Program-made: the position numbers and the translations under genes
The notes under the pieces: model-generated
Told to the model about the DNA's origin: nothing
What the model saw: only the letters and a program-made list of their open reading frames with translations
Databases searched by the model: none
Shown: one piece after another, positions 228 to 25,585 of the stretch
Layout of the letters: each line of letters starts with the position of its first letter
How positions within the stretch are numbered: position 1 is the first letter of the stretch
NCBI RefSeq assembly: GCF_000008625.1
Contig: NC_000918.1
Location: forward strand, 120,001-152,000
Source of the DNA: Aquifex aeolicus VF5
GTDB taxonomy: Bacteria; Aquificota; Aquificia; Aquificales; Aquificaceae
Direction of reading: 5' to 3'
Length of the DNA stretch: 32,000 bases

Positions 228-1451
228 ATGGCAGAATTAAGGGAAACTCTCGAAAGACTCGCATCCTTCAGACCTCAAAATTACTACGTTTCCACCCTTT
301 ATTTGAGATTAATGCCCGAAGACAGGCAGGACAACAAGTACCTGAGGGTTTACAAGGACCTAGTGAAAAAGAAGGAAAAGGATTTAGAAAACCTGAACCT
401 GGATAAAGAGGTTCTTGATTCTATAAGGGGGGACATTAAGAACATTCAGGACTTTTTATCCGATCCTAAAAACCTTTACAACTGCAGGGGGATAGCGATA
501 TTTTCCTGCTCAAAGCTCGGACTGTTTGAGTACGTGAAACTTCCCTACGTTTACAGAAACAGGCTTATGTTCTCACCTGACCCTCTCGTGAGGGAAATAG
601 CGGCGATAGACGAGGAGTTCGGAAGGGTTGCAGTTCTGCTTCTTGACAGAAAACACATAAGGTACTTCCTCATGGACATAACGGGAATAGAAGAAAAGCT
701 GGACTTCTTAGAGCCCATGACCACGAGAGCCCACAGGTTCCACAGCGGAGGAGCGCTTCTCAAAGGTGCGGAGGGAACGTTCCAGTACAGAATGCCCGCG
801 AGGGGTGCAGCGCCAAACGTAGTTCAGCACGGAATGGGTGAGTGGCGTTTCCACATGAGATTAAGGGAAGAGTGGCACAGGATACTCAAACTCGCATCGG
901 ACGCCCTCTTTGAAGAGTGGAAGAGAATACACTTTGACAAGTTAATAATCGGGGGATTTATAGAAGAAGGTCTGAGGGAAATAGAAAACTTCCTGCACCC
1001 ATACGTTAAAGAAAAACTGGTGGGTTACATAGAGATAACGCCCGAAGAGGCAACTCCCCATCAAGTTTGGGAAAAAGCCCTTGACCTCCTTTGGCAAAAG
1101 GACAGGGAGCAGGAAAAGGAAATAATTAAGGAGCTTGAAGAATTAAAGGGCTGGGGACTCGCGGTTAACGGAACTTCGGAAGTTCTTGAAATGCTAGCCA
1201 TAGGAAACGTAAGAACGCTAATTCTTCCAGAGGACTTTGAAAAACCCGGATACCTCTGTCCGCAGAGTCACCTCGCATTCTTAAAGCCCGAGTGCCCCCT
1301 TCCCGAAGAAAAGCCCATTCCCGTAAGCGACGTGGTTGACGAGGCATTAGAAGAGGCCCTGGATCAAAGGGCAACGATAGAGGTTATAATAGATAAGGAA
1401 CTCCAGAAGAAGGTGGACGGACTTGCGGCGTTCTTAAGGTTTAAGCTATGA
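228..1451 (+). CDS. Bacterial eRF1/aRF1/Pelota-like protein (baeRF1-type), with a degenerate GGQ loop (HSGGA)
   Basis: 407-aa ORF with SD AAAGGAGG 6-7 nt upstream of the ATG. The C-terminus GLAVNGTSEVLEMLAIGNVRTLILPED...VDGLAAFLRF matches the eRF1/Pelota domain-3 pattern (..G..EV..AL..GAV..LL...GGIAAILRY). The centre, RFHSGGALLKG...WRFHMRLREEWHR, lines up with the eRF1 M-domain (RGGQSA.RF.RLR.E). Confidence 0.6.
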   Translation: MAELRETLERLASFRPQNYYVSTLYLRLMPEDRQDNKYLRVYKDLVKKKEKDLENLNLDKEVLDSIRGDIKNIQDFLSDPKNLYNCRGIAIFSCSKLGLFEYVKLPYVYRNRLMFSPDPLVREIAAIDEEFGRVAVLLLDRKHIRYFLMDITGIEEKLDFLEPMTTRAHRFHSGGALLKGAEGTFQYRMPARGAAPNVVQHGMGEWRFHMRLREEWHRILKLASDALFEEWKRIHFDKLIIGGFIEEGLREIENFLHPYVKEKLVGYIEITPEEATPHQVWEKALDLLWQKDREQEKEIIKELEELKGWGLAVNGTSEVLEMLAIGNVRTLILPEDFEKPGYLCPQSHLAFLKPECPLPEEKPIPVSDVVDEALEEALDQRATIEVIIDKELQKKVDGLAAFLRFKL

Positions 1452-2074
1452 ACGAGAGGTTAATGATATTCATCGACGGTTCTAATCTGTTTCACGGAAT
1501 ACGGTACTTGAACATAAAGGTGGATTATTCAAAACTCGTGGAGTTCTTGAGGGAGGGGCGCTACCTCGTTCGCGCTTACTTTTACACCGCCGTTCCTCAG
1601 GAAAAGGACATCAAGAAGGGAACGCCCGAGTGGGACAGTCTTCAGAGACAAAAGAGGTTCCTTGACGAACTTTCCTTTATGGGCATAAAAGTGAAGACAG
1701 CTCACTTGAGGAAACTCCCGAGCGGTGAGTACCTGGAAAAGGAAGTTGACATAATGCTTGCCACGGATATGCTCTCCCTTGCTTACAGAAACGCTTACGA
1801 TACGGCTGTTCTCGTTAGCGGGGATAGCGACTTTATACACACCGTGGAAGCGGTGCAGAGTCTGGGAAAGAGGGTGGAAAACGCAACATTCAAGAAAACG
1901 AGTTCCTACAACCTGAGAAAGGTGTGCGACAGGTTCATACTTCTGGACGACCATCTTGACAAGATACTCATGGAGGAGAAGGGTAAAGAAATAGTTCCCG
2001 TGGAAGAGGAGGAAAAAGGAACGGAAGAAAGGGAAGGCTTTTTGGAAAGGTTTAAAAAATTCTTCGGGCTATGA
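1448..2074 (+). CDS. NYN/LabA-like (PIN-fold) ribonuclease domain protein with an acidic C-terminal tail
   Basis: 208-aa ORF whose start overlaps the upstream stop (ATGA at 1448-1451). It carries the NYN motifs MIFIDGSNLFHG, EVDIMLATDM and LVSGDSDFIHTVEAVQSLGKRV. Confidence 0.75.
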   Translation: MNERLMIFIDGSNLFHGIRYLNIKVDYSKLVEFLREGRYLVRAYFYTAVPQEKDIKKGTPEWDSLQRQKRFLDELSFMGIKVKTAHLRKLPSGEYLEKEVDIMLATDMLSLAYRNAYDTAVLVSGDSDFIHTVEAVQSLGKRVENATFKKTSSYNLRKVCDRFILLDDHLDKILMEEKGKEIVPVEEEEKGTEEREGFLERFKKFFGL

Positions 2075-2679
2075 AACTGCTGGTTGCCACCACAAACGAA
2101 GGAAAGTACAGGGAGATAAAAGAAATTCTTTCCGAGTATGGTATTGAAGTATTAAAACCCGAGGAAAAACTGGAAGTAGAGGAAACGGGTTGTACATTTT
2201 TAGAAAACGCATACCTGAAGGCTAGAGCTTACTACGAAAGGTACAAAATCCCTGCGCTTGCGGACGACTCCGGTCTTATCGTTGAAGCCATAAGCCCATA
2301 TCCGGGTGTGTATTCCAGCAGGTTTTACGACATAGACTTCGGCGGCAGGGAAGAAGTAAGAACGAACAAGGACGAAGCAAACATAAGAAAACTTTTAAGG
2401 CTTTTGGAAAACACAGAAAACAGGAAGGCAAAATTTGTAGCTTTTATAGTCGTATACGGGGGAAGTTGGGGAATTTTTGCAGAAGGAGAAGTCAGGGGAG
2501 AGATAACGAAAGAGCCGAGGGGAGACAGAGGTTTTGGCTACGACCCCGTTTTCGTTCCGGAAGGTTATAACAAAACCATGGCTGAACTTTCTCCGGAAGA
2601 AAAGAACAAAATATCCCACAGGGGGAGAGCTTTAAGAAAGCTCGTACATGTACTGAAAAATTGTGAAAAAGCTTTCTGA
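2071..2679 (+). CDS. rdgB: Non-canonical purine NTP pyrophosphatase (dITP/XTP pyrophosphatase, RdgB/HAM1 family)
   Basis: 202 aa, with ATGA overlap to the NYN gene at 2071-2074. Motifs: LLVATTNEGKYREIKEIL, PALADDSGL, FGYDPVFVPEGYNKTMAEL and ISHRGRAL. Confidence 0.9.
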   Translation: MKLLVATTNEGKYREIKEILSEYGIEVLKPEEKLEVEETGCTFLENAYLKARAYYERYKIPALADDSGLIVEAISPYPGVYSSRFYDIDFGGREEVRTNKDEANIRKLLRLLENTENRKAKFVAFIVVYGGSWGIFAEGEVRGEITKEPRGDRGFGYDPVFVPEGYNKTMAELSPEEKNKISHRGRALRKLVHVLKNCEKAF

Positions 2680-3844
2680 AAAGTTAAGAGCTTACGAAGT
2701 TCTAAGGGAAGTCTTCAACGTAATTGCGGTTATCTCCCTGAACAGGTTTAAAAAAACGAGACACATAGTCTCTCAAGAGTATCCCTACTTTGAAAGGTTA
2801 AAGGAGGTTCTTGAGCATCTCTTTGCCCTTCATCCGACTCATCCGCTATTCAAACCAAGAGAGGAAAAAAGAGTTTCGGTAGTAGTGTTTACCTCAGACC
2901 TTTCCTTTACGAGAGAGCTCTGCAACAAGATTTTTAAAAGTGTCCCCGAATTTCGGGAGACGGAGTTTATAATCTTCGGAGGAAAGTGCAGGAAGAAAGA
3001 TTTATTTGAGAGACTTAAACCGAAGGTTATCTCAAACACTTTTACTAAGCTTGTAGACTACTCAAAGATTTTAAAAACTTTTGAAGAACTCTTTGAAAGG
3101 TTTGCATCAAAGGAACTGGATGCGGTCTACGTCGTAAGCGCACTTCCGTTTTTGGAAAGGGCTGAAGGAAAGGGAAAAAGGGAAACGGGAAAATCTATAA
3201 AGGAAGAGGAAGTAAAGAGGGAAATACTGTACACAAGGGGAGCGAGGTACGTAAGGGCGGTAGAACTTGGAGAGAGCGGGAGAATAGAGGTTTACGTTGA
3301 GAGGTTCTTACCTCCGAAGATAAAAGGGGTTTACAGGAAGGACTTAATCCTAAACTTTGAAGGAAATGAAGAGGAAATAATAAGAACCGTTCTCAAACTG
3401 TACACGGAGTTTCACGCAAAGTTCTTGAGTTTAGCACACTGGAATGCCTTGAACCTTCAGCGTTTCAGAACGGCAAAGAGAATTCAGGACAATTTGGAAA
3501 GGAAGATAAAGAATTTAAAGAGGCTCATAAGTAAGGAAAGGCAAGAAAAGATTAACAGAGAACTACAGGACATAGCCCTTTCACTTCTGGCTTTAGAAGA
3601 GAAGAAGTTTAAAGACATTGAACACAAAGATTATGTCCTCGAGATAGATAAAAATCTTGAAGAAAGTCTAAAGAAAAAGGTAATAGAAATACTGAAAGAA
3701 CACTTTCCCATTTTAGAAGTTAAGGAGGTGGAAGGATTGCTCGGTTTTTACTTGAGGGGAGAGGGCAAGGTATACAACGCCAGTACCCTGAAACAACTGG
3801 AACTCTTTGTAAGAGAAATTATCTTAAGGGTGGACCGATCTTGA
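2663..3844 (+). CDS. Divergent F1-ATPase gamma-subunit-like protein with a C-terminal extension of about 65 aa (orphan paralog)
   Basis: 393 aa with a GTG start at 2663, the first start after an in-frame TGA at 2654. There is no internal Met and a 17-nt overlap with rdgB. The N-terminus, ...LNRFKKTRHIVSQEYPYFERLKEVLEHL...HPLFKPREEKRVSVVVFTSDLSFTRELCNKIFK, follows the gamma pattern (AAAKLRKAQ...RPY...L..VL..L...HPLL....KKVGYIVITSDRGLCGGFN.N..K). The C-terminal helix, LNLQRFRTAKRIQDNLERKIKNLKRLISKERQEKINRELQDIALSLLAL, follows SE..ARM.AM..AT.NA..LI..L.L.YNR.RQA.IT.EL.EIV.GA.AL. Confidence 0.5.
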   Translation: MKKLSEKLRAYEVLREVFNVIAVISLNRFKKTRHIVSQEYPYFERLKEVLEHLFALHPTHPLFKPREEKRVSVVVFTSDLSFTRELCNKIFKSVPEFRETEFIIFGGKCRKKDLFERLKPKVISNTFTKLVDYSKILKTFEELFERFASKELDAVYVVSALPFLERAEGKGKRETGKSIKEEEVKREILYTRGARYVRAVELGESGRIEVYVERFLPPKIKGVYRKDLILNFEGNEEEIIRTVLKLYTEFHAKFLSLAHWNALNLQRFRTAKRIQDNLERKIKNLKRLISKERQEKINRELQDIALSLLALEEKKFKDIEHKDYVLEIDKNLEESLKKKVIEILKEHFPILEVKEVEGLLGFYLRGEGKVYNASTLKQLELFVREIILRVDRS

Positions 3845-4700
3845 CGAGACCCGTTTCCGTAATTTCCATAAAGTGGGTTTTTGTGTCGTGCCCGCAGAGT
3901 CTGCATCCGTCAATCCTGAAGAGTCGAACTATATCGCCTATCTCCTTTTTGTATATCTGTGCCTGATACTTAGTCATTATTAATTCCTTTGCAAGAACCA
4001 TCGTACAGTCAACTATGTGGCTTATGGCAAAACCGCCTGCGGCTTCCGCGGAAAGTTCTTCGTGGGAACTCCTCTTTTGGGAAACAAAGAGAGCGGTCTG
4101 ATACCACTTCTTCATGAAGTTAAAGAGTTGTCTCACTATAGTCCTTGCGAGCATTTCCTTGGCTTCGTACAACCCTGTTACAGAGTCTATTATGGTGTGC
4201 TTCACCTTGTAAGTTTTTATTACGTGTGCTAGAGTGGCGAGCAGGTTCGGGATGTTTTCCCTGAGCGTTGCGTGACTTGCGGCGTCTATGAGTATTATCT
4301 TATCCTTTATCTTGTCAAAGTCTACGCCCATTGCGGTTGCCCTTTCTCTTAGTCCCATGGTAACGAAGGGTGCAGGGCTTTCAACGGTTATAAAGGCAAC
4401 AGGTTCTCCCCTTTCCGCCTGCTTTACTGTGTACTGTTCCACCATCAAGGACTTTCCCGTATCTGAAACGCCGGTTATGTTCGTAACGGAATACCTTGGT
4501 ATACCGCCTAAAGGTACTTTTACAACTTTCCCTTCCCTGATTTCAGACTTGAAGAAGAGTTCATCCAGTCCCTCTACTCCCGTGGGAACACCTTCGAGTT
4601 TAGGAGCTTTCTTGAGGGCCTCTTCCGCTACCCATATACCCTCTTCTACGACTCTGGGTTTTTCTTGATGTTCTTCCTCGTAGTGTTTTTTGTAGTCCAT
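3819..4700 (-). CDS. Single-domain KaiC/RadA-like RecA-superfamily ATPase
   Basis: 293 aa with SD GGGAGGT 5 nt upstream of the ATG. PTGVEGLDELF...GGIPRYSVTNITGVSDTGKSLMVEQY contains the Walker A motif; HTIIDSVTGL is Walker-B-like. The 3' end overlaps the convergent 2663-3844 gene by 26 nt. Confidence 0.8.
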   Translation of the reverse strand: MDYKKHYEEEHQEKPRVVEEGIWVAEEALKKAPKLEGVPTGVEGLDELFFKSEIREGKVVKVPLGGIPRYSVTNITGVSDTGKSLMVEQYTVKQAERGEPVAFITVESPAPFVTMGLRERATAMGVDFDKIKDKIILIDAASHATLRENIPNLLATLAHVIKTYKVKHTIIDSVTGLYEAKEMLARTIVRQLFNFMKKWYQTALFVSQKRSSHEELSAEAAGGFAISHIVDCTMVLAKELIMTKYQAQIYKKEIGDIVRLFRIDGCRLCGHDTKTHFMEITETGLVKIGPPLR

Positions 4701-4820: not shown

Positions 4821-7800
4821 ATGAAAGTAGTTATCGTTGGAAACGGAATAGCCGGAACGGCTCTTGTAGAGGAAATACTACGATTAAGCAGTGGAAAAGA
4901 TATAAGAATTCAAGTCTTTGGAGATGAAAAGTTTATAGGTTACAACAGGGTTCTCATAACAGAAGTTCTGGCTGGCAGGAAAACACTCAGTGAGATATAC
5001 ATAAAGCGCTGGCAGTGGTACGAGGAAAAGGGAGTAAGGCTGGAAATCGGTAAGAAGGTGGAAAGACTATTTCCCAATAAGAAGATACTCGTAACGAAAG
5101 ACGGGGAATTTTACAGGTACGATAAAGCTATAATAGCAACGGGAAGTAAGCCCTTTATACCTCCTTCTATTAAAGGCGTAAATAAAAAAGGTGTATTCAC
5201 TTACAGGACAGCAAAGGACGTTTTTGAAATTCTGGATTACGCCAGGGTTTCAAAAAGGGCGGTGGTAATCGGGGGAGGACTCCTCGGTATAGAAGTGACT
5301 AAAGCCCTAAGGGACATAGGTCTCGAAGTTTTTCTGGTTCATATCCTTGACACCCTAATGGAACAGCAACTTGATAAAACGGCTTCTGAGCTCCTAAGAA
5401 AGGATTTAGAAGATATGGGAATAAAAGTATTGCTCAAAAAAGTTACGGAAGAAATCTTAGGGGAGAAGAAAGCCGAGGGAGTACGTTTTTCAGATGGTGA
5501 TGAACTCCTTGCTGATTTTGTAATCATCGCTACGGGAATAAGACCGAACGTTGAAGTCGGTGTAAATTCAGGTCTAAAAGTAAACAAGGGCATAGTGGTT
5601 AACGACTACTTGGAGACCTCTGCGAGTGATATCTACGCCGTTGGAGAGTGTATAGAACACAGAGGAAAAACTTATGGTCTGGTAGCCCCAATAATGGAGC
5701 AAGTCAAGGTATGCGCTCACAACGTTGTTCACGGAAATGAAAAGAAGTACACGGGATCACTTACCTACGCTATGTTAAAGGTTGCGGGTGTAAATCTGTT
5801 TTCTGCGGGGGAAATTAACGAAAAAGACGGAGACGAGGTTGTAGCTTTTCTAGATAACGGAAGGTCACTGTATAGGAAAGCGGTAATCAGAAATAACAAA
5901 ATTGTAGGAACAATTTTGTATGGAGATGTAAGGGGAAACAATTACCTCCTCGACCTAATAAAAAGCGGTAAAGATATATCGGAAGAAAGACCGTATTTTC
6001 TTATAAAACACATCCTTCCCAAGGGCACAACCGGGGTTGAAGAACTTAAGGATAATGACATAGTTTGCAACTGCAACGCAGTAACGAAAGGCGAGATAGT
6101 CAAGTGCATTAAAGAAGGGTGTAAAACTTTAGAGGAAATTCAGGAAAGAACAAAAGCTTCTACTTCATGCGGTAGTTGTATAGAACTCGTTGAAGAAATA
6201 CTGAAACACTACGTAAAAGAAAAACCAAAGCGTGTTAATAAAATTGAGGTTATAAAAAAGGAGCTTCATCCCTTTGACTTAGAGTTTAAAAAACGTTTAG
6301 AGAAGTACTTTTCCGAAGGAGAGCTTGAAAACATTCCAGAAGAGGACAGGGACGTAAGACTAAAGTGGTATGGCATCTTTTACAGAAAAGCTACTCCAGG
6401 ATACTTCATGGTCAGAATTAGGGTTCCTAACGGAAGGCTTTCCTACGAGCAGGCTAAGGTAGTTTCCCACATTTCGGAGAAGTTCTGCAGGGGAGAAGTG
6501 GAAATAACTTCCCGTCAGCAACTTCAGATTAGGTGGATAAAGTTAAAAGATTTACCTGAAATCCTTGAAGCGTTAAACAGGGTAGGCCTTTCAACACTCC
6601 AGACGGGTATGGATAACGTGAGGAATGTAACAGGTGACCCTCTTACAGGTCTCGCAGAAGATTCTCTTATAGATACCCTGAGATTGTCTCAAGAGATAAC
6701 AAATATCTTTTTAGGTAAAAAGAAGTACGCAGACCTTCCAAGAAAACTAAACGTAGCGGTTCTGGGTTCACAAACGGACTGTATAAACGCCCTGTTTAAC
6801 GACGTTTGTTTTTACCTTTCGGAGAAGGATGGAAAGCTCGGTTTTAACCTTTATCTGGGCGGAAAGATAGGTTCAGGTGGCCCTAAAAAAGCGATAGATA
6901 TGGACATGTTCGTAGAACCTTACGAAGTACCCGAGGTGTTCAAGGCAACACTTGATATTTATTCAACTTTTGGAAACAGGGAAAACAGAAGTAAAAACAG
7001 ACTGTATTTCCTTCTTCAAGAGTGGGGAGTTGAAAGGTTCAGAGAAGAACTGGAAAAGAGACTGTACAAAGCTATACCCTCAAAAGGGAAAGATTTGGTA
7101 AACAAAACGGGGGAAAGGGAGGGGATTATAAACCTCAGGAATGGAACTTACGCAGTCTGTGTTGTAGTTCCGGCAGGAAAGATAAAGGCTAAGGACTTTA
7201 GACAGATTGCAGAGCTTGCAAGGAAATACGGAAGCAGAGAGCTCAGGTTAAGTGTGTATCAAAATATATACATCCCGAACATCCCGGAAGAGAACCTGAA
7301 CCCACTTCTCGGAGAAGAAATCTTTGAAAAGTTCAGCACGGTTAGCTCTCCTTTTACAATGCATCTTATAGCCTGTGCGGGAAGTGATACCTGTTCCTTT
7401 GGTGTCATACCTAACAAGAGTGACGCTGTGAGGGTGGCCAAATACTTAAGCGAAAGACTCAAACTTGACATTCCTGTCAGGATGCACTGGTCCGCCTGTG
7501 CCAAAGGTTGCGGTCAACACGGGAGCGGAGATATAGGATTTGTAGGGACTAAAACCAAGCTAAATGGAAAAGCTGTGCTGGCTGTAGACGTATTCGTCGG
7601 AGGTTCACCCACAAAGGAAGGTTTCAAAGTAATTCAAGGGCTTCCTTTAGATAAAGTGGAGGAAGCTTCTTACCTACTGCTTAACTACTACCTTGAAAAC
7701 AGACTAGAGGGGGAGAGCTTTGCGGATTTCGCCCACAGGGTAGGAGTGGATAAACTCAAGGTGGTTCTTACAAGTCTTTTACAGGAAGGGGAATGTAAGC

Positions 7801-7829
7801 TACTGAAACCCGAGAGTATAAGCAAGTAA
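4821..7829 (+). CDS. nirB: Assimilatory NAD(P)H nitrite reductase: a NirB-type flavoprotein and BFD [2Fe-2S] module fused to a full two-lobed sirohaem/[4Fe-4S] nitrite/sulfite reductase module
   Basis: 1002 aa. The N-terminus VVIVGNGIAGTA and a second Rossmann motif VVIGGGLLGIE mark the flavoprotein. CNCNAVTKGEI...SCGSC is the BFD-like 2Fe-2S motif. DVRLKWYGIFY, CAGSDTCSFG and SACAKGCGQHG are NiR/SiR hemoprotein motifs. Confidence 0.85.
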   Translation: MKVVIVGNGIAGTALVEEILRLSSGKDIRIQVFGDEKFIGYNRVLITEVLAGRKTLSEIYIKRWQWYEEKGVRLEIGKKVERLFPNKKILVTKDGEFYRYDKAIIATGSKPFIPPSIKGVNKKGVFTYRTAKDVFEILDYARVSKRAVVIGGGLLGIEVTKALRDIGLEVFLVHILDTLMEQQLDKTASELLRKDLEDMGIKVLLKKVTEEILGEKKAEGVRFSDGDELLADFVIIATGIRPNVEVGVNSGLKVNKGIVVNDYLETSASDIYAVGECIEHRGKTYGLVAPIMEQVKVCAHNVVHGNEKKYTGSLTYAMLKVAGVNLFSAGEINEKDGDEVVAFLDNGRSLYRKAVIRNNKIVGTILYGDVRGNNYLLDLIKSGKDISEERPYFLIKHILPKGTTGVEELKDNDIVCNCNAVTKGEIVKCIKEGCKTLEEIQERTKASTSCGSCIELVEEILKHYVKEKPKRVNKIEVIKKELHPFDLEFKKRLEKYFSEGELENIPEEDRDVRLKWYGIFYRKATPGYFMVRIRVPNGRLSYEQAKVVSHISEKFCRGEVEITSRQQLQIRWIKLKDLPEILEALNRVGLSTLQTGMDNVRNVTGDPLTGLAEDSLIDTLRLSQEITNIFLGKKKYADLPRKLNVAVLGSQTDCINALFNDVCFYLSEKDGKLGFNLYLGGKIGSGGPKKAIDMDMFVEPYEVPEVFKATLDIYSTFGNRENRSKNRLYFLLQEWGVERFREELEKRLYKAIPSKGKDLVNKTGEREGIINLRNGTYAVCVVVPAGKIKAKDFRQIAELARKYGSRELRLSVYQNIYIPNIPEENLNPLLGEEIFEKFSTVSSPFTMHLIACAGSDTCSFGVIPNKSDAVRVAKYLSERLKLDIPVRMHWSACAKGCGQHGSGDIGFVGTKTKLNGKAVLAVDVFVGGSPTKEGFKVIQGLPLDKVEEASYLLLNYYLENRLEGESFADFAHRVGVDKLKVVLTSLLQEGECKLLKPESISK

Positions 7830-7844
7830 AGGAGGAAGTGGAGT

Positions 7845-8579
7845 ATGGGAAAGGTTTACCTCATAGGAGCCGGTCCTGGAGACCCTGAGCTTCTGACACT
7901 TAAAGCTTATCGTATTCTCAGGAAAGCTGACGTAGTTCTATACGATGCCTTGGTAAACAGGGAAATACTTCACTTTGCCAGACAAGACAGCCTTAAGATA
8001 TACGTGGGCAAGAGAGACGGAAAACACTCCTTGCCTCAGGAGGAGATAAATGAACTTCTTCACAGGTTTGCACTTAGCTACAAAATTGTAGTTAGACTTA
8101 AAGGCGGTGACCCTTTTGTGTTCGGAAGGGGCGGAGAAGAACTCCTTTACCTAAAAAGCAGGGGTGTGGAAGTGGAAATAGTACCGGGTATAACTTCGGC
8201 GATTTCTGCACCCTCCTCCGCTTTCATTCCCGTAACACATAGGGGAATAGCCTCGTCGTTTGCGGTTGTTACAGGCCACCCCAACAGAGAAATAAAATGG
8301 GAGGATTTAGTGAATATAGATACACTCGTTGTTCTTATGGGTGTTAAGAACAGAGAAAAGATAGCGAGAGAACTTATAGGAGCAGGACGAAACCCGGACG
8401 AACCCGTTGCCTTTATAGAGAAGGCTACAACTCCGGAGCAGAGGGAAGTTTTCAGCACATTGAAAGAAGTTGCTCAAAACCCGCCGGAGGTAAACCCGCC
8501 CGCTGTAATGGTTGTAGGAAAGGTCGTAGAAATAGGAGCAAAAGTCCTATGTGAACGTATAATCGGCGTTACACTTTAA
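7845..8579 (+). CDS. cobA: Uroporphyrinogen-III C-methyltransferase (SUMT; sirohaem synthesis)
   Basis: 244 aa with VYLIGAGPGDPELLTLKA, VVRLKGGDPFVFGRGGEE and VPGITSA. It sits immediately downstream of the sirohaem-dependent nirB. Confidence 0.85.
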   Translation: MGKVYLIGAGPGDPELLTLKAYRILRKADVVLYDALVNREILHFARQDSLKIYVGKRDGKHSLPQEEINELLHRFALSYKIVVRLKGGDPFVFGRGGEELLYLKSRGVEVEIVPGITSAISAPSSAFIPVTHRGIASSFAVVTGHPNREIKWEDLVNIDTLVVLMGVKNREKIARELIGAGRNPDEPVAFIEKATTPEQREVFSTLKEVAQNPPEVNPPAVMVVGKVVEIGAKVLCERIIGVTL

Positions 8580-8583
8580 AGGA

Positions 8584-9513
8584 ATGGACATTTTAGAAAG
8601 AACTTTCAAAAAATTAACGAGACTTAAGGATAACCTTCAGGACCTTTCTCAGGAAGAAGCCTATGAAGTATTTAGGGCTATACTTGAAGGTAAACTCTCA
8701 GATATAAAGACAACTGCCTTCCTGACAGCCATGAGGATAAAGGGGGAAACTTCTGAGGAACTCCTCGGTGTAATTAAGGCAATTAAAGAGAGAATGAATT
8801 TTCCGCAGAAGAAAGAGGACGCCTTAGACCTCGGTCTGAACTATGACGGGAAGAACAGGACCATTTATATCCTTCCCTCTGCCCTGTGGCTCTGTTCAAG
8901 ACTCGGTGTAGAGTTCACAAACCACTACGCTCTTGGAGCTCCAACGAAAGAAGGTGTTACCCTCTACGAAGTAGTTAAGGAACTTGGTGTAGATATGAAC
9001 GTATCCTTTGTAGACCAAAAGAATTACGCACCGGAGCTATACAAACTCATGCCTCTGAGAAGAGAACTCGGTTTCAGGAGCTTGATAAACACGGTAGAAA
9101 AGTTTCTAAATCCCTTTCAGACTAAAAAGATTGTCGTTTCTATCTTTCACAAGCCGTACTTTGATAAGAACGCAGAGCTTCTTGAGCTCCTCGGGATTGA
9201 AGACTACACAATTATCAAGGGGCTTGAGGGCGGGATTGAGCCTCTCCCTGATAGACCCACGCTCGTAAAGAAGAGAGGGAAGGACATAGAAAGTATAGAA
9301 CCTAAATCCCTCGGTCTTGAAATGCCCAAGGATGTTCATTCTGAAAACGTCCTGAGGGATTCGCTTGAGATAAACAGAAAGATAATTGATGGTAGAGAGA
9401 GGGGAGAGTTCTTCAACTGGGCGCTTTACACGGCGGGGGTATTGCTCTACGCGGCAGGGGAGTGCGAAAGTGTGGAAGAGGGGGTAGGAAGGGTAGAGAA
9501 AGAATCCACCTGA
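8584..9513 (+). CDS. Anthranilate phosphoribosyltransferase-like (glycosyltransferase family 3) protein with degenerate catalytic motifs
   Basis: 309 aa. The N-terminal helical domain, LSQEEAYEVFRAILEGKLSDIKTTAFLTAMRIKGETSEEL, is typical of TrpD. However, GTGGDG is replaced by GLNYDG and KHGNR by NHYAL. Confidence 0.65.
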   Translation: MDILERTFKKLTRLKDNLQDLSQEEAYEVFRAILEGKLSDIKTTAFLTAMRIKGETSEELLGVIKAIKERMNFPQKKEDALDLGLNYDGKNRTIYILPSALWLCSRLGVEFTNHYALGAPTKEGVTLYEVVKELGVDMNVSFVDQKNYAPELYKLMPLRRELGFRSLINTVEKFLNPFQTKKIVVSIFHKPYFDKNAELLELLGIEDYTIIKGLEGGIEPLPDRPTLVKKRGKDIESIEPKSLGLEMPKDVHSENVLRDSLEINRKIIDGRERGEFFNWALYTAGVLLYAAGECESVEEGVGRVEKEST

Positions 9514-9521
9514 AACAAAAA

Positions 9522-9531
9522 TGTAGCTACA
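9522..9531. promoter_or_regulatory. Palindrome TGTAGCTACA; a second palindrome CTGTTAAAACAG lies at 9579-9590. Both are upstream of the globin-operon sigma-54 promoter and are candidate EBP or architectural-protein sites
   Basis: Read directly. It shares the TGTA...TACAAAA frame with the nirB upstream palindrome. Confidence 0.3.
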
Positions 9532-9603
9532 AAATTGTACGCAAAGCGTCTCCACAATCAGAGAAAAGTTTCCAAGAACTGTTAAAACAGAACGGGGAGA
9601 ATT

Positions 9604-9619
9604 TGGCACGCTTTTTGCA
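9604..9619 (+). promoter_or_regulatory. Sigma-54 (-24/-12) promoter of the globin-cynS-PII-porter-narB operon
   Basis: TGGCACGCTTTTTGCA is an exact match to TGGCAC-N5-TTGCW. It ends 27 nt upstream of the ATG at 9647. Confidence 0.8.
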
Positions 9620-9646
9620 ATTAGTTTGAGTGAAGGAGGTGAAAAG

Positions 9647-10066
9647 ATGTTGTCCGAGGAGACTATCAGGGTCATTAAGTCAACTGTCCCTCTTCTGAAA
9701 GAGCATGGTACGGAGATAACTGCTAGGATGTACGAATTGCTGTTTTCAAAGTATCCTAAAACTAAGGAGTTATTTGCAGGGGCTTCGGAGGAACAACCAA
9801 AGAAGCTTGCAAACGCCATAATAGCCTACGCTACCTACATTGATAGGCTAGAGGAGCTTGATAACGCTATCTCAACGATAGCCAGGAGTCATGTGCGAAG
9901 AAATGTAAAGCCGGAACATTATCCGCTGGTTAAAGAATGTCTCTTACAGGCAATTGAAGAGGTTTTAAATCCTGGGGAGGAAGTTCTCAAAGCATGGGAA
10001 GAGGCGTACGATTTTCTTGCTAAAACGCTTATAACCCTAGAGAAAAAACTTTATAGCCAGCCTTAG
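9647..10066 (+). CDS. Single-domain bacterial haemoglobin (Vitreoscilla Hb / flavohaemoglobin globin-domain type; thermoglobin-like)
   Basis: 139 aa counted from the ATG at 9647, with SD GGAGGTG 5 nt upstream. Tyr-B10 lies in ITARMYELLF, Gln-E7 in EEQPKKLANAI and the proximal His in IARSHVRRNVKPEHYPLV. The TTG start at 9626 in the ORF track is less likely, because the SD would then fall inside the ORF. Confidence 0.85.
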   Translation: MLSEETIRVIKSTVPLLKEHGTEITARMYELLFSKYPKTKELFAGASEEQPKKLANAIIAYATYIDRLEELDNAISTIARSHVRRNVKPEHYPLVKECLLQAIEEVLNPGEEVLKAWEEAYDFLAKTLITLEKKLYSQP

Positions 10067-10078
10067 GGAGGTCTAATT

Positions 10079-10528
10079 ATGAGGAGCGATATAGGAAGGC
10101 TCTCTAAGTACTTAATTGAAAGGAAAAAGAATCTTGGTCTTACGTGGGAAGATGTAAGCAGAAAGCTTGGGAAAAGCCCCGTTTATTGTGCAATGCTCTT
10201 CTATGGATACGCTCAGGCCGACGATGAAGAGGTTAAAGCTGTAGCTGAGCTTTTGAATCTGGAAGAGAAGGAGCTCGCGGAGCTGAAAGATGCCCCATAC
10301 AGAGAACCTCAGCAACCCGTCCCGCCTACGGATCCCTTCGTTTACAGGCTCTATGAAGTTGTTATTCTCTACGGACCGGCTTTAAAAGATGTAGCCCACG
10401 AAATGTTCGGGGACGGGATAATGAGTGCTATAGATATGAGCGTTGAGCTTGAAAAAGTTGAGCAGGAGGGGGCTGAGCGTATGGTTTTAACCTTTAATGG
10501 CAAATGGCTGAAGTACAGGAAGTTTTAA
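10079..10528 (+). CDS. cynS: Cyanate hydratase (cyanase)
   Basis: 149 aa with SD GGGAGGT. The sequence LGLTWEDVSRKLGKSPVYCAMLFYG...DPFVYRLYEVVILYGPALKDVAHEMFGDGIMSAIDM...FNGKWLKYRKF is a full-length cyanase pattern. Confidence 0.9.
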   Translation: MRSDIGRLSKYLIERKKNLGLTWEDVSRKLGKSPVYCAMLFYGYAQADDEEVKAVAELLNLEEKELAELKDAPYREPQQPVPPTDPFVYRLYEVVILYGPALKDVAHEMFGDGIMSAIDMSVELEKVEQEGAERMVLTFNGKWLKYRKF

Positions 10529-10543
10529 AGGGAGGATTTAGAA

Positions 10544-11161
10544 ATGGAAGAGCTCTTGGCAATTGTCAGGAAGGAAAAGTCTTACGATGTGATGAAATCC
10601 TTATCTGAGGCTGAGATACCTTACGTTTCCTGGACTGTGAAGGGGAGGGGGAAGGAGGGGGGACTCAGATATAAAGGTCTTATTAAAGAAAAGGTCCTCA
10701 TGCCTTTCCTGCCAAAAAGGGCTTTCTTGGTCTTTCCCGAGGAGGGCAAAGTAAATGAGGCTGTGAACCTTATCGTTGAAAGTGCTCACACGGGTGCTTA
10801 CGGAGATGGGAAGGTCTTTTTGATAAACCAGGAGGTAGGCGTTATGAAACTTGTAAAGGCTGTTATAAGACCTGAGAAAGTCTACGAAGTAATTAAGGCT
10901 CTCGAGAGCGAAGGATTTAAAGCTATGACCATGTGGGATGTGGTAGGAAGAGGAAAGGAGGGGGGGATCTTGGTGGGAGGGACTCCTTACGACGAGCTCG
11001 CTAAGACGCTCATCATGGTCGCGGTAAAGGATGAGGACGTTGACAAGGTTATACAGAGCATAACGAAAGCTGCGCACACGGGTGCTTACGGAGATGGGAA
11101 GGTGTTCGTTTGCAGCATTTCAAAAGTTTGGACCATAAGGACTAAGGAGGAGGAGCTATGA
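10544..11161 (+). CDS. glnB: Tandem-domain PII (GlnB/GlnK-like) signal-transduction protein: two PII domains in one polypeptide
   Basis: 205 aa. Each half carries RGKEGG (T-loop base) and HTGAYGDGKVF (the PII TG..GDGKIF motif). An internal SD GGAGGT (10831-10836) lies 7 nt upstream of the in-frame ATG at 10844 that opens domain 2. The stop overlaps the porter start (ATGA). Confidence 0.8.
   Translation: MEELLAIVRKEKSYDVMKSLSEAEIPYVSWTVKGRGKEGGLRYKGLIKEKVLMPFLPKRAFLVFPEEGKVNEAVNLIVESAHTGAYGDGKVFLINQEVGVMKLVKAVIRPEKVYEVIKALESEGFKAMTMWDVVGRGKEGGILVGGTPYDELAKTLIMVAVKDEDVDKVIQSITKAAHTGAYGDGKVFVCSISKVWTIRTKEEEL
10787..10815 (+). repeat. Copy 1 of a 29-nt perfect direct repeat inside the tandem PII gene
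   Basis: CACACGGGTGCTTACGGAGATGGGAAGGT is identical to 11075-11103 and encodes HTGAYGDGKV in both domains. Confidence 0.9.
11075..11103 (+). repeat. Copy 2 of the 29-nt perfect direct repeat inside the tandem PII gene
   Basis: Identical to 10787-10815. The copies are offset by 288 nt (96 codons). Confidence 0.9.
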
Positions 11162-12585
11162 ATTTCCTGAAGGAGATAATTGAAGCAATTAAGAAGGGAA
11201 ATCCAAAAGCTCTGTTTGCCAGTTTTATATACTTTGACCATTCATTCAGTATATGGCTACTCTTAGGAGCTCTTGGACCTTTTATAGCTGAGTCCTTCGG
11301 ACTCTCAGGAGCCCAAAAAGGTTTTATGGTTGCAATTCCCGTAATAGCCGCAGCCATATTCAGACTCAACTTCGGACATATGTTCCAGTATATAGACGGG
11401 AAGTACATAGCGATAATGGGCATAATCCTTTCCTCTATCCCTCACCTTTACATGATACTCAGCGGATATCGTGTAACCTACGATGACCTTCTCTGGATGG
11501 GGGTTTTTCTCGGTATCGCAGGAGCAAGCTTTGCGATAGCCCTCCCTATGGCGGGAAGTAACTACCCGAAAGAGGTTCAAGGACTCGTACTTGGACTTGC
11601 CGCGGCGGGAAACATAGGAGCTGTTTTAGACGGTATACTCTTTCCTCCTATTGCAAGGTCCATCGGTTGGGAAAATACCTTCGTTCTTTCGGGAATACTC
11701 CTTCTTATAGCCCTGTTTTTTGTCGTTATCTGGGCGCGGGACCTTACCAAGAAGAACGAAGGGAATAGGTTTTATCCCGTATTTGCATTCTTTGCCACTA
11801 TAGCTTTTATGGTAATACTGGCTCTCGGTTTTCAAAAGGGATGGTTCGGTATAACCGGAAACGCTGGAAAACTCCTCATACCGGTACTTGGTTCTGTATT
11901 TGCTATACTCCTTATGCCTCTTGCCTTTAAAAAGGTGTTCCTGGAAAGGGACACGTGGGTACTTATGCTCGCTTACTCCATAACTTTCGGCGGTTTTGTA
12001 GGAATGTCCTCGTACGTGGCTATGCTCCTTAGGGACATATACGGTATATCCAAAGTGGAGGCAGGAGCTCTTATGTCCCTTTTTGCCTTTACGGGTGCGA
12101 TGATAAGACCTCTGGGGGGACATATCGCGGATAAAATAAGCGGAGCTACAGCACTTCTCTTTTTCCTCGCGGGCATAGCGGGAGTTAACTTCATATTTTC
12201 CCTCGTAACACCGCCTCTGGCGGTAGGTATAGTTTTATTCCTTGCACTCTACTCCTTCTATGGACTTGGAAACGGTGCTGTATTTCAGCTCGTTCCTCAC
12301 AGGTGGCCATATCAAACTGGACTTATGACGGGAATAATCGGAGCTGCCGGAGGTATCGGTGGTTTTTACCTGCCCGTTGTAAACGGAATAGTCTTTGAGT
12401 CCACGGGAGCTTACAACCTGGCGTTTGCACTCTTCGGAGGAATAGCCCTGCTGTGTCTCCTTATAGTTAAGCTTCTTCATGCTCGCTGGATGGAATGGGC
12501 CTACGTTCGCTACGACTACGAAAAAGAAACGTTGGTTGGTATTGATCCTAAGAGTGGAAGGGTAATTATGGAGTTGGCAAGATGA
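11158..12585 (+). CDS. narK: MFS nitrate/nitrite porter (NNP family, NarK/NasA/NrtP type)
   Basis: 475 aa and highly hydrophobic, with about 12 predicted TM segments. It has glycine-rich NNP-like motifs (AGAAGGIGGFYLP, GLGNGAVFQLVP). ATGA overlaps occur at both ends. Confidence 0.8.
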   Translation: MNFLKEIIEAIKKGNPKALFASFIYFDHSFSIWLLLGALGPFIAESFGLSGAQKGFMVAIPVIAAAIFRLNFGHMFQYIDGKYIAIMGIILSSIPHLYMILSGYRVTYDDLLWMGVFLGIAGASFAIALPMAGSNYPKEVQGLVLGLAAAGNIGAVLDGILFPPIARSIGWENTFVLSGILLLIALFFVVIWARDLTKKNEGNRFYPVFAFFATIAFMVILALGFQKGWFGITGNAGKLLIPVLGSVFAILLMPLAFKKVFLERDTWVLMLAYSITFGGFVGMSSYVAMLLRDIYGISKVEAGALMSLFAFTGAMIRPLGGHIADKISGATALLFFLAGIAGVNFIFSLVTPPLAVGIVLFLALYSFYGLGNGAVFQLVPHRWPYQTGLMTGIIGAAGGIGGFYLPVVNGIVFESTGAYNLAFALFGGIALLCLLIVKLLHARWMEWAYVRYDYEKETLVGIDPKSGRVIMELAR

Positions 12586-14582
12586 AGAGGTTTCAATGTC
12601 CTTACTGCGGTGTAGGATGCGGTCTTTACATAAACGAGAAGGGTAAGGTGAAAGGGGATTTTGAACATCCCGCTAATCTCGGGGACATCTGTAAGAAGCC
12701 CTTGTATTTACCGAAGGTACTGAATAGGGGAAGGATAGCGAAGCCCATGTACAGGGAAAATAAGAGTCACAGCTTCAGGGAAATAAGTTGGGAGGAAGCT
12801 TACGAGATACTAAAAGAGAAGCTCATCTCCTTTTCTCCCGACGAAACTTACTTTTATCTTTCGGGACAACTTTTAACGGAGGATATATACGTAGCAAACA
12901 AGTTCGTTAAAGGTTTTCTCAGAACCAATAACGTTGACGCAAACTCAAGACTTTGTATGGCTTCTGCAGTTACCGCTTACAAACTCGCTTTTGGTTCCGA
13001 CGGTGTTCCCTGTACGTACGAGGACGTGGACGATGCGGATGCCTTCCTTTTTATAGGTTCTAACGCTGCCGTAGCTCATCCTGTTCTTTTTAAAAGGGTT
13101 CTGAAGAGGAGGAAGGAAGAAGAAAAAGTAATTATAGTAACCGTAGATCCGCTGGAAACGGAAACCGCCAAAAGGAGCGATGTTTTCATTCAAATAAAAG
13201 CTGGAACGGATACGGTTTTCCTCAACTCCGTTTTATACGTTCTGCATAAGGAGGGGTGGATAGATTACCGCTTTATTTACAACTACACGGAGGGATTTGA
13301 AGAGGCTCTGGAAGTTGCCATGAAATTCCCTCCAGATGTGGCCGCCAGCATTTGTAGCGTCAAACCGGAAGACGTATACCTCGTAGCGGAGCTCTTTGCC
13401 CACAGTAAAAAACTTATCTCCTTCTGGTGTCAAGGGTTAAATCAGTCCTTAAATGGGACTATGAAAAATCTGGCTTTGATAAACCTCCACTTGGCCACCG
13501 GAAGGCTCAACGAAAAGGGATGTCCCTTTTCCTTAACCGGTCAACCGAACGCCATGGGAGGTAGAGAAGTAGGTTATCTCACAAACGGTCTTCCCGGATA
13601 CAGAGATGTCAGGAATAAGGCGGACAGAGCATTTATGGAGAAATTCTGGGGCGTTAAAGGTATAAAGAAAGAGCCGGGACCCACAATTACGGAAGCGATA
13701 GACATGATTCTAAAAGACAGAATAAAGTTTCTCTGGGTGGTATGCACAAATCCCGCGGTGTCTTTACCCAACTTAGAAAAAGTTAAAAGGGCTCTTGAGA
13801 AGGTTTTCTTAGTAGTTCAGGACGCTTACTGGAATGACACCTGCGAGTTTGCAAATTTAATACTGCCCGCCGCACAACTGGGAGAAAAAGAAGGAGTTAT
13901 GACTGGTTCCGATAGAACTGTTACATTTTGTGAGCGTTTTTCCGAGCCTTTTGGTGAATCAAAGCCAGACTGGCTCATATTTACTGAGCTTGCAAGAAAG
14001 ATGGGAGCCGAAGAGCTTTTCCCTTACTCTTCTCCAAAGGAAATATTTGAGGAATTTAAAGCCTCAACCAAGGGGAGATTGTGCGACATGAGTAATTTAT
14101 CCTACGAAAACCTTCCCGCAAGGTGGGGCAAAAGATGGCTCTATGAAGACCTAAAATTCCCAACGGAAAGCGGAAAAGCAAGATTTCACCCCGCACGGGT
14201 AGATGTGGCAGCTGAAGAAGGGATGTTTATACTTCTGACGGGAAGATTAAAGAACAACTGGCACACTATGACGAGAACTGGAAAGAGCCCGGAACTGTTG
14301 AAAGGTGAAATTCCACCTTTTGTGATAATGAATCCCAGAGACGCGGAGGAACTGGGAATAGAGGAAGGAGAGGAAGTGATACTGAGTGCAAAGGGAAAAG
14401 AAATAACCAGAGTTGTCAGGTTCGGAAACGTAAAAAGAGGACACATATTCGCACCTTTCGGTTATCCTTCCGAATACGGAGAGCCTACTAATTTGTTAAC
14501 GTCCGACAGAACGGATCCTTACTCAAAGGAGCCGGATCTTAAGTACTCAGGGGTAGATGTGTTTGTAAAAGTAAATAGGTGA
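12582..14582 (+). CDS. narB: Assimilatory nitrate reductase catalytic subunit (molybdopterin oxidoreductase, NarB/NasA type)
   Basis: 666 aa. The N-terminal [4Fe-4S] motif is CPYCGVGCG...C. The body is MGD-enzyme-like (GSNAAVAHPV, LTGQPNAMGGREVG, VVCTNPAVSLPN). It has no signal peptide. Confidence 0.85.
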   Translation: MKRFQCPYCGVGCGLYINEKGKVKGDFEHPANLGDICKKPLYLPKVLNRGRIAKPMYRENKSHSFREISWEEAYEILKEKLISFSPDETYFYLSGQLLTEDIYVANKFVKGFLRTNNVDANSRLCMASAVTAYKLAFGSDGVPCTYEDVDDADAFLFIGSNAAVAHPVLFKRVLKRRKEEEKVIIVTVDPLETETAKRSDVFIQIKAGTDTVFLNSVLYVLHKEGWIDYRFIYNYTEGFEEALEVAMKFPPDVAASICSVKPEDVYLVAELFAHSKKLISFWCQGLNQSLNGTMKNLALINLHLATGRLNEKGCPFSLTGQPNAMGGREVGYLTNGLPGYRDVRNKADRAFMEKFWGVKGIKKEPGPTITEAIDMILKDRIKFLWVVCTNPAVSLPNLEKVKRALEKVFLVVQDAYWNDTCEFANLILPAAQLGEKEGVMTGSDRTVTFCERFSEPFGESKPDWLIFTELARKMGAEELFPYSSPKEIFEEFKASTKGRLCDMSNLSYENLPARWGKRWLYEDLKFPTESGKARFHPARVDVAAEEGMFILLTGRLKNNWHTMTRTGKSPELLKGEIPPFVIMNPRDAEELGIEEGEEVILSAKGKEITRVVRFGNVKRGHIFAPFGYPSEYGEPTNLLTSDRTDPYSKEPDLKYSGVDVFVKVNR

Positions 14583-14584
14583 AT

Positions 14585-16105
<1,521 letters not shown>

Positions 16106-24274: not shown

Positions 24275-25585
24275 ATGGGTGTAAATAGGAGAGACGTTTT
24301 TAAACTGGCGGGTTTGGGGGTAGCTCTGGGAGCACTTCAATTACCCTCTATTGCATGTGCTGCGAAAACGTCAAATAGCTTGCTCTCTCCTTCTAAGGGA
24401 AAGAGGATAGTAATCGTGGGAGGAGGATGGGCCGGTGTTACGGCGGCAAAATATATAAGGAAGGAAATCCCCGACGCGGAAGTGGTTCTCATAGAACAGA
24501 GAAAGATGTTTATGTCCTGTCCGATAAGTAACGTATGGCTGGGTGGGCTGGTAGACCTGGAATTCCTTATACACGACTTCTTAACACCCGCTGCAAAGTA
24601 CGGTTACACTTTCATTAACGCAACCGTAACGGATATAGACAGGGATAAAAGAAGGGTATACACGGAAGACGGATACGTTGAGTACGACTACCTCATACTC
24701 GCACCAGGAATAAGGTACAACTACGACGCATGGTTTAACGGAGATAAGGACATGGCAAGGTACGCTCAGACACACTACCCATCCGCTTTCATTCCCGGCT
24801 CTGAGCACTTGAGGCTGAAGAAGAAAGTGGAAAACTTCGAAGAAGGGACGTTTGTACTGGTTGTTCCTCCACCTCCACACAGATGTCCTCCCGCACCTTA
24901 CGAGAGGGCAGCTATGATAGCGCACGTTTTCAGGCAAAACGAAGCCAAGGCAAAATTGATAATCCTTGATCCAAAAGAAAAGATAGCTCCAAAGGGTCCC
25001 GGTTTCAGAATGGCTTACGAGCAGCTGTATCTTGACATAATAGAGTACGTTCCCAACGCAAAGATAAAGGAAGTTGACCCCGTTAAAAAGGTTATAAAGA
25101 CTACCGCAGGGGACTTTAAGTTTGACGACGCTAACCTGAACCCTCCCCATCAAGCGGCGGACATTGCCTGGAAAGCCGGACTCGTCAATCCAAAAACGGG
25201 CTGGTGTGATGTAGACCCTATAACGCTTCAGTCTAAGGTGGACAAGAGGATATTCATCCCCGGAGACGCAAACTCCGTAAAAGGTTTTCCAAAGAGCGGT
25301 GATATGGCGAACAACCAGACCAAGTTTATGCTCGTGAAAGCTATAAAGGCGATGATAGAAGGAAAGGATCCCCTTGAATACGTAAAGGCTCCTACAAACA
25401 CCTGTTACTCTATGGTAAACGGAGACCCGAAAGAAGCGATAGTCATTAACGTTGTTTACGACATAGACAAACAAAAGCGTATGCCCGTTAAGAAGAAGGT
25501 TAACGTAGAAAACGAGCGTTCTCAAAGACTCGCAAGGGCTACATTTGAATGGGCTAAAGCCATGTACAGGGATATGTTCTCGTGA
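24275..25585 (+). CDS. fccB: Flavocytochrome c sulfide dehydrogenase flavoprotein-like (FccB/SoxF-type) FAD oxidoreductase, TAT signal
   Basis: 436 aa. NRRDVFKLAGLGVALGA is a twin-arginine signal and IVIVGGGWAGVTAAKY is the FAD Rossmann motif. The FCSD redox-Cys contexts are MSCPISN, HRCPPAPYERA and NTCYSMVNG. Confidence 0.8.
   Translation: MGVNRRDVFKLAGLGVALGALQLPSIACAAKTSNSLLSPSKGKRIVIVGGGWAGVTAAKYIRKEIPDAEVVLIEQRKMFMSCPISNVWLGGLVDLEFLIHDFLTPAAKYGYTFINATVTDIDRDKRRVYTEDGYVEYDYLILAPGIRYNYDAWFNGDKDMARYAQTHYPSAFIPGSEHLRLKKKVENFEEGTFVLVVPPPPHRCPPAPYERAAMIAHVFRQNEAKAKLIILDPKEKIAPKGPGFRMAYEQLYLDIIEYVPNAKIKEVDPVKKVIKTTAGDFKFDDANLNPPHQAADIAWKAGLVNPKTGWCDVDPITLQSKVDKRIFIPGDANSVKGFPKSGDMANNQTKFMLVKAIKAMIEGKDPLEYVKAPTNTCYSMVNGDPKEAIVINVVYDIDKQKRMPVKKKVNVENERSQRLARATFEWAKAMYRDMFS

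Follow-up and report, generated by a model that had tools for sequence, protein, structure and literature searches.

Aquifex aeolicus aq_203, a divergent F1 gamma paralog with a delta/OSCP-like C-terminal domain

The stretch of the Aquifex aeolicus VF5 genome analyzed here (contig NC_000918.1, positions 120,001 to 152,000; hereafter the window, 32,000 nucleotides [nt] in full, whose own numbering is used throughout) encodes aq_203, an accessory paralog of the F1 gamma subunit that carries, fused to its C terminus, a domain resembling the delta subunit's C-terminal domain and that has so far been found only in Aquificota. In the F-type ATP synthase, gamma is a rotor subunit and delta is a stator subunit, and the two must move past each other, which makes a conserved protein consisting of a complete gamma and a delta C-terminal domain unexpected. 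The join is located exactly where gamma and delta come closest in the assembled enzyme, and such a rotor-stator fusion would surprise ATP synthase specialists.

The gene, its annotation as gamma, and the presence of an extension are already known from the NCBI annotation and from a 2014 paper, in which aq_203 is described as “a very divergent sequence” with “a 80aa C-terminal extension” (Koumandou & Kossida, PMC4154653). What appears to be new is the assignment of the extension to the C-terminal domain of delta/OSCP, the recognition of an Aquificota-restricted family of gamma-delta fusions, and the data on gene context and gene loss; the available literature searches found nothing on any of these. 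The plain name “F0F1 ATP synthase subunit gamma” is likely a misannotation of these fusion genes and is corrected here.

Gamma and delta-like modules of aq_203

The 393-residue product of the open reading frame (ORF) at positions 2663-3844 of the plus strand is identical (100% over the full length) to the NCBI protein “F0F1 ATP synthase subunit gamma [Aquifex aeolicus]” and is listed as aq_203, with 393 amino acids and as a solitary gene, in Table S1 and Dataset S1 of PMC4154653. An initial annotation, made from the letters of the window, had described the product as a highly divergent gamma-like protein, and profile comparisons bear this out on both counts. The Pfam gamma profile PF00231 matches residues 1-307 (profile positions 2-281 of 285) with an E value of 9.9e-24 and a score of 85 bits (cutoff, 39.9) and also matches every other member of the family described below, and a profile of the close family of aq_203 finds the gamma chains of the Protein Data Bank (PDB) at an E value of 1.6e-17. 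All NCBIfam gamma equivalogs, however, are missed by a wide margin: TIGR01146 scores 41.5 against a cutoff of 194.45, and even the best-scoring one, NF010708, reaches only 60.3 against a cutoff of 445. The gamma-type pattern of the two terminal helices, which had also been noted at the outset, recurs in the AlphaFold2 (AF2) model of aq_203 (predicted local distance difference test [pLDDT] score, 76.9), where long helices comprising residues 2-56 and 236-314 flank a Rossmann-like alpha/beta domain. Foldseek aligns this model with solved F1 gamma structures with target-normalized template modeling (TM) scores of up to 0.83 and a root mean square deviation of 3.0 Å (e.g., 6q45_G). Thus, aq_203 is a true but divergent homolog of F1 gamma.

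It is also the second gamma copy of its genome, a paralog of the separate housekeeping atpG gene. Two ATPF1G genes have been listed in A. aeolicus, aq_203 and aq_2041, the latter coding for a canonical gamma of 291 residues and adjoining atpD (aq_2038) (Koumandou & Kossida, PMC4154653; the aq_2041 sequence used here was taken from Dataset S1 of that paper). The existence of aq_2041, which shares 25 to 28% identity with aq_203, rules out the possibility that aq_203 is the sole atpG of the genome; a complete delta is likewise encoded elsewhere (PMC4154653). Consistent with the initial description of aq_203 as an orphan, a Pfam scan of the 26 main ORFs of the window found no other atp genes, whether for alpha, beta, delta, epsilon, or the Fo subunits. 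This isolation says little, however, because the atp genes of A. aeolicus are scattered over six loci (OA-X-OC; OB'-OB-ID; IA; IE; IG; IG-IB), with atpA and atpC solitary as well (PMC4154653).

Conservation within the gamma module was assessed in an alignment of 18 fusion proteins with 121 canonical gammas. Among the columns in which the canonical proteins are at least 70% conserved (52 in all), 24 share their majority residue with the fusion family, which also retains all of the strictly invariant canonical positions. Residues G121, R244, R270, Q271, I274, and E277 of aq_2041 correspond to G106, R267, R293, Q294, I297, and E300 of aq_203, the last five of which, whose canonical counterparts in the C-terminal helix face alpha3beta3, are at least 94% conserved in the fusion family and in the 121 canonical gammas alike. 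In F1, the Arg-Gln pair (R293-Q294 in aq_203) is part of the “catch” contact with beta. The LP and xE motifs of the gamma foot are also kept in the family, and its basal members retain more of the canonical motifs in both modules (TSDRGYVGDF; LIGGF..LD.SV). An insertion in the globular domain (residues 164-206, with pLDDT scores below 50 for residues 167-187) is missing from canonical gamma in another alignment. The C-terminal helix stops exactly at the canonical gamma C terminus, as E300 aligns with E277 of aq_2041, which lies 14 residues short of the C terminus of that protein, and a short linker follows.

The region beyond the linker (residues ∼324-393), initially noted as an extra C-terminal domain, is homologous to the C-terminal domain of delta/OSCP. 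It is conserved throughout the fusion family and has a beta-alpha-beta-beta-beta-alpha fold. Among the more basal members, it reads, e.g., “...RRRLIGGFKLLLPGKALDLSVIGSLGSLKERV,” which is the signature of the delta/OSCP C terminus; the A. aeolicus delta, for comparison, ends with “...DPSLIGGFVFKTQAFVLDTSVKTQLEKLARV.” The Pfam OSCP profile PF00213 matches residues 346-389 of the family member P0014 (profile positions 126-171 of 172; 26.9 bits with a cutoff of 22.3), as well as P0015 (E value, 9e-4), and 7 of 18 isolated C-terminal domains match OSCP, with the best E value being 6.3e-7. A profile of the C-terminal domain retrieves the delta subunit of Bacillus PS3 (6n2y_I) at an E value of 5.7e-5, followed by the delta subunits of chloroplasts and P. 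aeruginosa, and its hhalign comparison with the A. aeolicus delta (aq_1588) gives an E value of 2e-4. When an AF2 model built for the isolated extension (pLDDT, 78.9) is compared with the PDB using Foldseek, 19 of the 20 top matches are delta/OSCP chains, from the PS3, Polytomella, bovine, E. coli, chloroplast, and mycobacterial enzymes, with probabilities of 0.80 to 1.00 (at least 0.94 for ranks 1-15). aq_203 lacks the helical bundle that forms the N-terminal domain of delta: the matches cover only positions ∼126-171 of the 172 in PF00213, and the rest of the protein is gamma. The architecture of aq_203 is thus very probably that of a gamma module (residues 1-314), a linker of ∼9 residues, and a module resembling the delta C-terminal domain (residues 324-393).

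With the canonical gamma (AtpG; PF00231, TIGR01146; aq_2041), aq_203 shares the family, the antiparallel coiled coil of the N- and C-terminal helices with its alpha/beta domain, the length of the gamma module, and the G, R, and RQ..I..E positions assigned to the C-terminal helix; it differs in having a globular insertion of ∼40 residues and a C-terminal addition of ∼80 residues, in being located away from atpD, in its fast evolution, and in being dispensable in one relative (see below). Delta/OSCP (AtpH; PF00213), in turn, has an N-terminal helical bundle that binds the alpha N termini, whereas the delta-like module of aq_203 is joined to gamma. A natural delta fusion is also found in the F-type ATP synthase of mycobacteria, but the b-delta protein (chain d of 8jr0, 7jg8, and 7njl) combines two subunits of the stator that are binding partners already, whereas in aq_203 a stator domain is placed on a rotor subunit. 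We know of no earlier description of a stator domain fused to a rotor subunit. Divergent extra gammas, from genomes that have a canonical enzyme as well, also exist in the N-type F1Fo ATPases (TIGR03323) and the mycoplasma F1-like ATPases; those, however, belong to alternative operons that are complete and include separate alpha and beta genes, and aq_203 has no such genes nearby. The match of TIGR03323 to aq_203 is weak (E value of 0.015 and 14.7 bits, with a cutoff of 282), and the N-ATPase operons lack delta (PMC4154653).

Distribution of the fusion family and its gene neighborhoods

Word-indexed searches for homologs, even those with profiles, returned only 9 to 12 proteins (nine Aquifex-like homologs), and the wider family emerged when 1.84 billion representatives were searched exhaustively with HMMER. 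In that search, 19 proteins have E values below 1e-30, most of them 358 to 404 residues in length and matching the whole profile, including the extension, and canonical gammas appear only from an E value of 3.8e-23. The top canonical match to the family profile, P0026, is an Aquificota-type gamma with 54% identity to aq_2041, and a closest canonical relative of this kind fits a duplication within Aquificota. A scan of GTDB genomes detected members in Hydrogenobacter sp. RSW1 and in metagenome-assembled genomes of Aquificaceae and Aquificota; the pattern used, [ELI]RQERIN[RSN]E, misses some members, including the one in A. aeolicus (RQEKIN), so this distribution is incomplete. Every named member of the fusion family belongs to Aquificota, and the gamma-delta fusions are thus a small family whose named members are restricted to that phylum.

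In the window, aq_203 closes a series of four co-oriented genes that overlap one another in turn (Table 1) and which code for a protein of baeRF family 10/12, an NYN nuclease, Ham1, and the fusion protein and probably form one operon; the next gene, for a KaiC-like ATPase, is convergent. The GTG start of aq_203, already proposed in the initial annotation, is backed by homologs that begin at the matching position, and the single Met residue of the protein is the one encoded by this start codon; Met residues are present in the homologs, so the lack of internal Met is not family-wide. There is a 17-nt overlap between the 5' end of aq_203 and the upstream Ham1 gene and a 26-nt overlap between the 3' end of aq_203 and the KaiC-like gene. 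No clear Shine-Dalgarno sequence is seen directly upstream of the GTG codon, which fits translational coupling to Ham1. Promoter and terminator scans found nothing specific to aq_203, and tRNA and Rfam scans of the window found no element.

Table 1. Coordinates of aq_203, its structural elements, and the neighboring genes in the window
Feature	Residues	Positions	Strand	Remarks
aq_203, whole gene (gamma paralog with a domain like the delta C-terminal domain)		2663..3844	+	GTG start; 17-nt overlap with Ham1
Gamma N-terminal helix	2-56	2666..2830	+	AF2 secondary structure; aligns with PDB gamma N termini; KITxAM replaced
Gamma globular alpha/beta (Rossmann-like) domain	57-235	2831..3367	+	DRGLCGxxN degenerate in the clade (SDLSFTRELCN)
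Family-specific insertion in the globular domain	164-206	3152..3280	+	Charged stretch, then a short helix
Gamma C-terminal helix	236-314	3368..3604	+	AF2; ends at the canonical gamma end
Motif R293-Q294-x-x-I297-x-x-E300	293-300	3539..3562	+	Equivalent to R270-Q271..I274..E277 of aq_2041
Short linker	315-323	3605..3631	+	Low confidence (pLDDT below 50 for residues 312-320)
Delta/OSCP C-terminal-domain-like module	324-393	3632..3841	+	Beta-alpha-beta-beta-beta-alpha; family Pfam matches, profile, hhalign, AF2, and Foldseek
baeRF family 10/12 gene		228-1451	+	Stop/start overlap with the next gene
NYN nuclease gene		1448-2074	+	Overlaps the baeRF and Ham1 genes
Ham1/RdgB gene		2071-2679	+	Overlaps aq_203
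KaiC-like single-domain ATPase gene (TIGR03878, “thermo_KaiC_2,” 476 bits)		3819-4700	-	26-nt overlap with aq_203

The baeRF-NYN-Ham1-fusion block is kept in the homologous loci L001, L002, L013, and L016 and, in part, in L009, where NYN, Ham1, and the fusion gene occur without the KaiC-like gene. Elsewhere in the family, the neighborhoods are different: in Hydrogenobacter (L007 and L010), the fusion gene is located between those for TyrRS and YmdB; in the clade of P0014 (L006, L011, and L012), it lies between trpC and yjeF; and the genes for P0021 (L015) and P0024 (L004) are found among unrelated neighbors. Where the block is shared, the neighboring gene products are 56 to 92% identical to those of A. 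aeolicus (71 to 87% for baeRF, 76 to 81% for NYN, 56 to 68% for Ham1, and 83 to 92% for the KaiC-like protein), and the synteny therefore reflects fairly close genomes. The KaiC-like ATPase gene, whose product is 83 to 92% identical among these relatives, overlaps its convergent neighbor at the 3' end in every case, whatever gene that neighbor is.

A scan of metagenomes with the baeRF protein yielded 31 loci (L017-L047). The baeRF-NYN pair was found in 25 of these, and the six loci without a visible pair mostly end before or just after the baeRF gene. Ham1 and the fusion gene follow baeRF-NYN in only a few loci, with the fusion gene present in L020. A functional link between aq_203 and the baeRF-NYN pair is thus unsupported, as the pair is widely kept without the fusion gene. 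The paper on baeRF proteins by Burroughs & Aravind (PMC6514570) mentions no association with NYN, Ham1, KaiC, or gamma. A defense system was also considered and rejected: PADLOC had no match for the gamma-like, KaiC-like, baeRF, or Ham1 proteins and matched the NYN protein only with generic NYN models.

Apart from aq_203, the baeRF and NYN genes (positions 228-2074) form a tight overlapping pair, with the NYN proteins 64 to 87% identical even where the baeRF proteins are only 52 to 60% identical, and such a combination of A-site factor and nuclease suggests a module for ribosome rescue or mRNA cleavage. A protein of 380 to 399 residues without a Pfam match is encoded on the same strand before baeRF in three loci (positions 4361-5548 of L001, 4344-5543 of L002, and 1407-2549 of L013); the window begins too late to show this gene in A. 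aeolicus.

Possible functions of the fusion protein

The favored partner of aq_203 is F1 itself, because the residues kept in the fusion family are those kept in all gammas and because the captured domain comes from a subunit that sits on the crown, above the exit of the gamma C terminus. In the published F1 and F1Fo structures, that C terminus comes out on the axis atop the crown, directly beneath delta. There is, accordingly, a substantial, if not quite even, chance that aq_203 associates with the F1 alpha3beta3 hexamer. The initial suggestion of a hexameric partner other than F1 runs counter to the presence of the delta-like domain and to the retained gamma residues, such as the Arg-Gln pair, which point back to F1Fo.

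If aq_203 does associate with F1, the gamma module would insert into the alpha3beta3 hexamer, and the linker of ∼9 residues would hold the delta-like domain on the crown, tethering the rotor to the stator. In delta, the C-terminal region binds the C terminus of b and the N-terminal domain binds the alpha N termini atop F1 (PMC6131620); the delta-like domain of aq_203 could, similarly, engage the C termini of b/b' and an alpha N terminus, or it could compete with delta. The resulting rotor-stator bridge would either park F1(Fo) in a non-rotating or assembly state or exclude normal delta binding. A locking, “parking,” or assembly role of this kind, accessory and non-rotating, can be proposed only tentatively. 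The same caution applies to the possibility that aq_203 is a natural rotor-stator fusion, in which a gamma shaft passing through the hexamer with the b-binding domain of delta on the crown would make an ATP synthase that locks itself or is “parked,” or an F1 held by its shaft. A parked synthase, if real, would be an undescribed way to regulate or assemble a rotary ATPase in hyperthermophilic Aquificota. Should aq_203 assemble into F1, it would provide a thermostable tool for blocking rotation and for studying the assembly of the crown and the peripheral stalk, as well as a test of whether alternative central stalks silence ATP hydrolysis in bacteria.

Several observations weigh against such a role in the ATP synthase. 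Purified and recombinant A. aeolicus F1Fo preparations contain the canonical gamma. The tether between rotor and stator would be mechanically odd, and its benefit is speculative. aq_203 itself has no Pfam OSCP match; the identity of the extension rests on the family and the fold because aq_203 is too divergent for a direct match. The Aquifex clade of the family has lost two motifs of canonical gamma, KITxAM in the N-terminal helix and DRGLCGxxN. The fusion protein, with 31 to 48% identity to A. aeolicus in the same loci, is the fastest-evolving product of its block. In locus L017, from a close relative, where the baeRF and KaiC-like proteins are 84% and 86% identical, respectively, to those of A. 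aeolicus, the fusion gene is cleanly absent: 38 nt (positions 7395-7432) stand in place of the 1,179 nt at positions 2637-3815 of the window, and the Ham1 and KaiC-like genes converge directly with the same 26-nt overlap. Finally, some of the family members appear damaged, with P0009 truncated at the N terminus, P0022 carrying an internal deletion of ∼60 residues, and P0023 frameshifted at the C terminus; the cause may be decay of the copies or errors in assembly. Together, the fast evolution, the absence from L017, and the damaged members suggest relaxed constraint.

These same features, along with the loss of canonical motifs, support the main alternative, namely that a fusion that arose once in Aquificota has since been drifting as a dispensable paralog with little or no function in the ATP synthase, or that aq_203 has a role unrelated to the ATPase in the operon with baeRF, NYN, and Ham1, for example, in RNA or ribosome quality control or in stress. 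We regard this alternative as possible rather than probable. Drift is at odds with the finding that most of the family members are intact and of full length despite sharing as little as 25 to 30% identity, and with the clustering of the invariant residues of the family in two places, the C-terminal helix of gamma and the hairpin of the delta-like domain. An operon role would agree with the co-oriented, overlapping arrangement with baeRF-NYN-Ham1 seen in five sub-lineages; however, among the 25 loci that extend past baeRF and have the pair, only L020 has the fusion gene, so the pair is independent of it, and in four lineages the gene is found in unrelated contexts. If aq_203 fails to assemble into F1, it would represent a clean case of a subunit of a core machine drifting after duplication and domain capture.

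A working alternative rotor, i.e., a condition-specific gamma isoform whose delta-like cap turns freely or stabilizes the crown bearing at very high temperature, is an unlikely explanation. The gamma fold of aq_203 is complete, and the conserved residues R267, R293, Q294, I297, and E300 as well as the foot motifs are retained, but an on-axis cap would collide with the delta N-terminal domain on the crown (PMC6131620), the 26 main ORFs scanned in the window include no paired alternative delta or b gene, and rapid evolution and the absence of the gene from a close relative speak against a core role. A freely turning isoform is therefore less likely than a locked or assembly state.

The proposal that aq_203 serves as a gamma-like shaft for a hexameric ATPase other than F1, notably the KaiC-like protein encoded next to it, as was suggested initially, draws on KaiC-family proteins being hexameric rings and on the convergent 3' ends with their 26-nt overlap, kept in the window, L001-L003, L008, and L016, but it is very improbable and was rejected on the basis of the family-wide context, the L017 locus, and the unequal rates: the two genes are not co-transcribed; only Aquifex-like members of the family have them side by side, the KaiC-like gene not being next to the fusion gene in L004, L006/L011, L007/L010, L009, and L015; the KaiC-like protein persists in L017, where the fusion gene is missing; its 83 to 92% identity compared with 36 to 48% for the gamma-like protein in the same loci gives no sign of co-evolution; and the added domain and the conserved residues of aq_203 belong to F1Fo subunits.

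Other features of the window

A 238-residue ORF at positions 25595-26311, without a Pfam match at an E value of 1e-5 or better, is flanked by two genes for flavoproteins similar to flavocytochrome c sulfide dehydrogenase (positions 24275-25585 and 26292-27545). Positions 4821-16105 constitute a nitrogen assimilation island, which codes for a 1,002-residue fusion of an NAD(P)H-flavoprotein with a siroheme nitrite/sulfite reductase, a uroporphyrin methylase, a TrpD-like paralog of the glycosyltransferase-3 family, a globin, a cyanase, a transporter of the major facilitator superfamily, a molybdopterin enzyme resembling nitrate reductase, and a divergent GAF-sigma54 activator. Within the same stretch, at positions 10544-11161, lies a gene for a 205-residue tandem P-II fusion with two PF00543 stretches.

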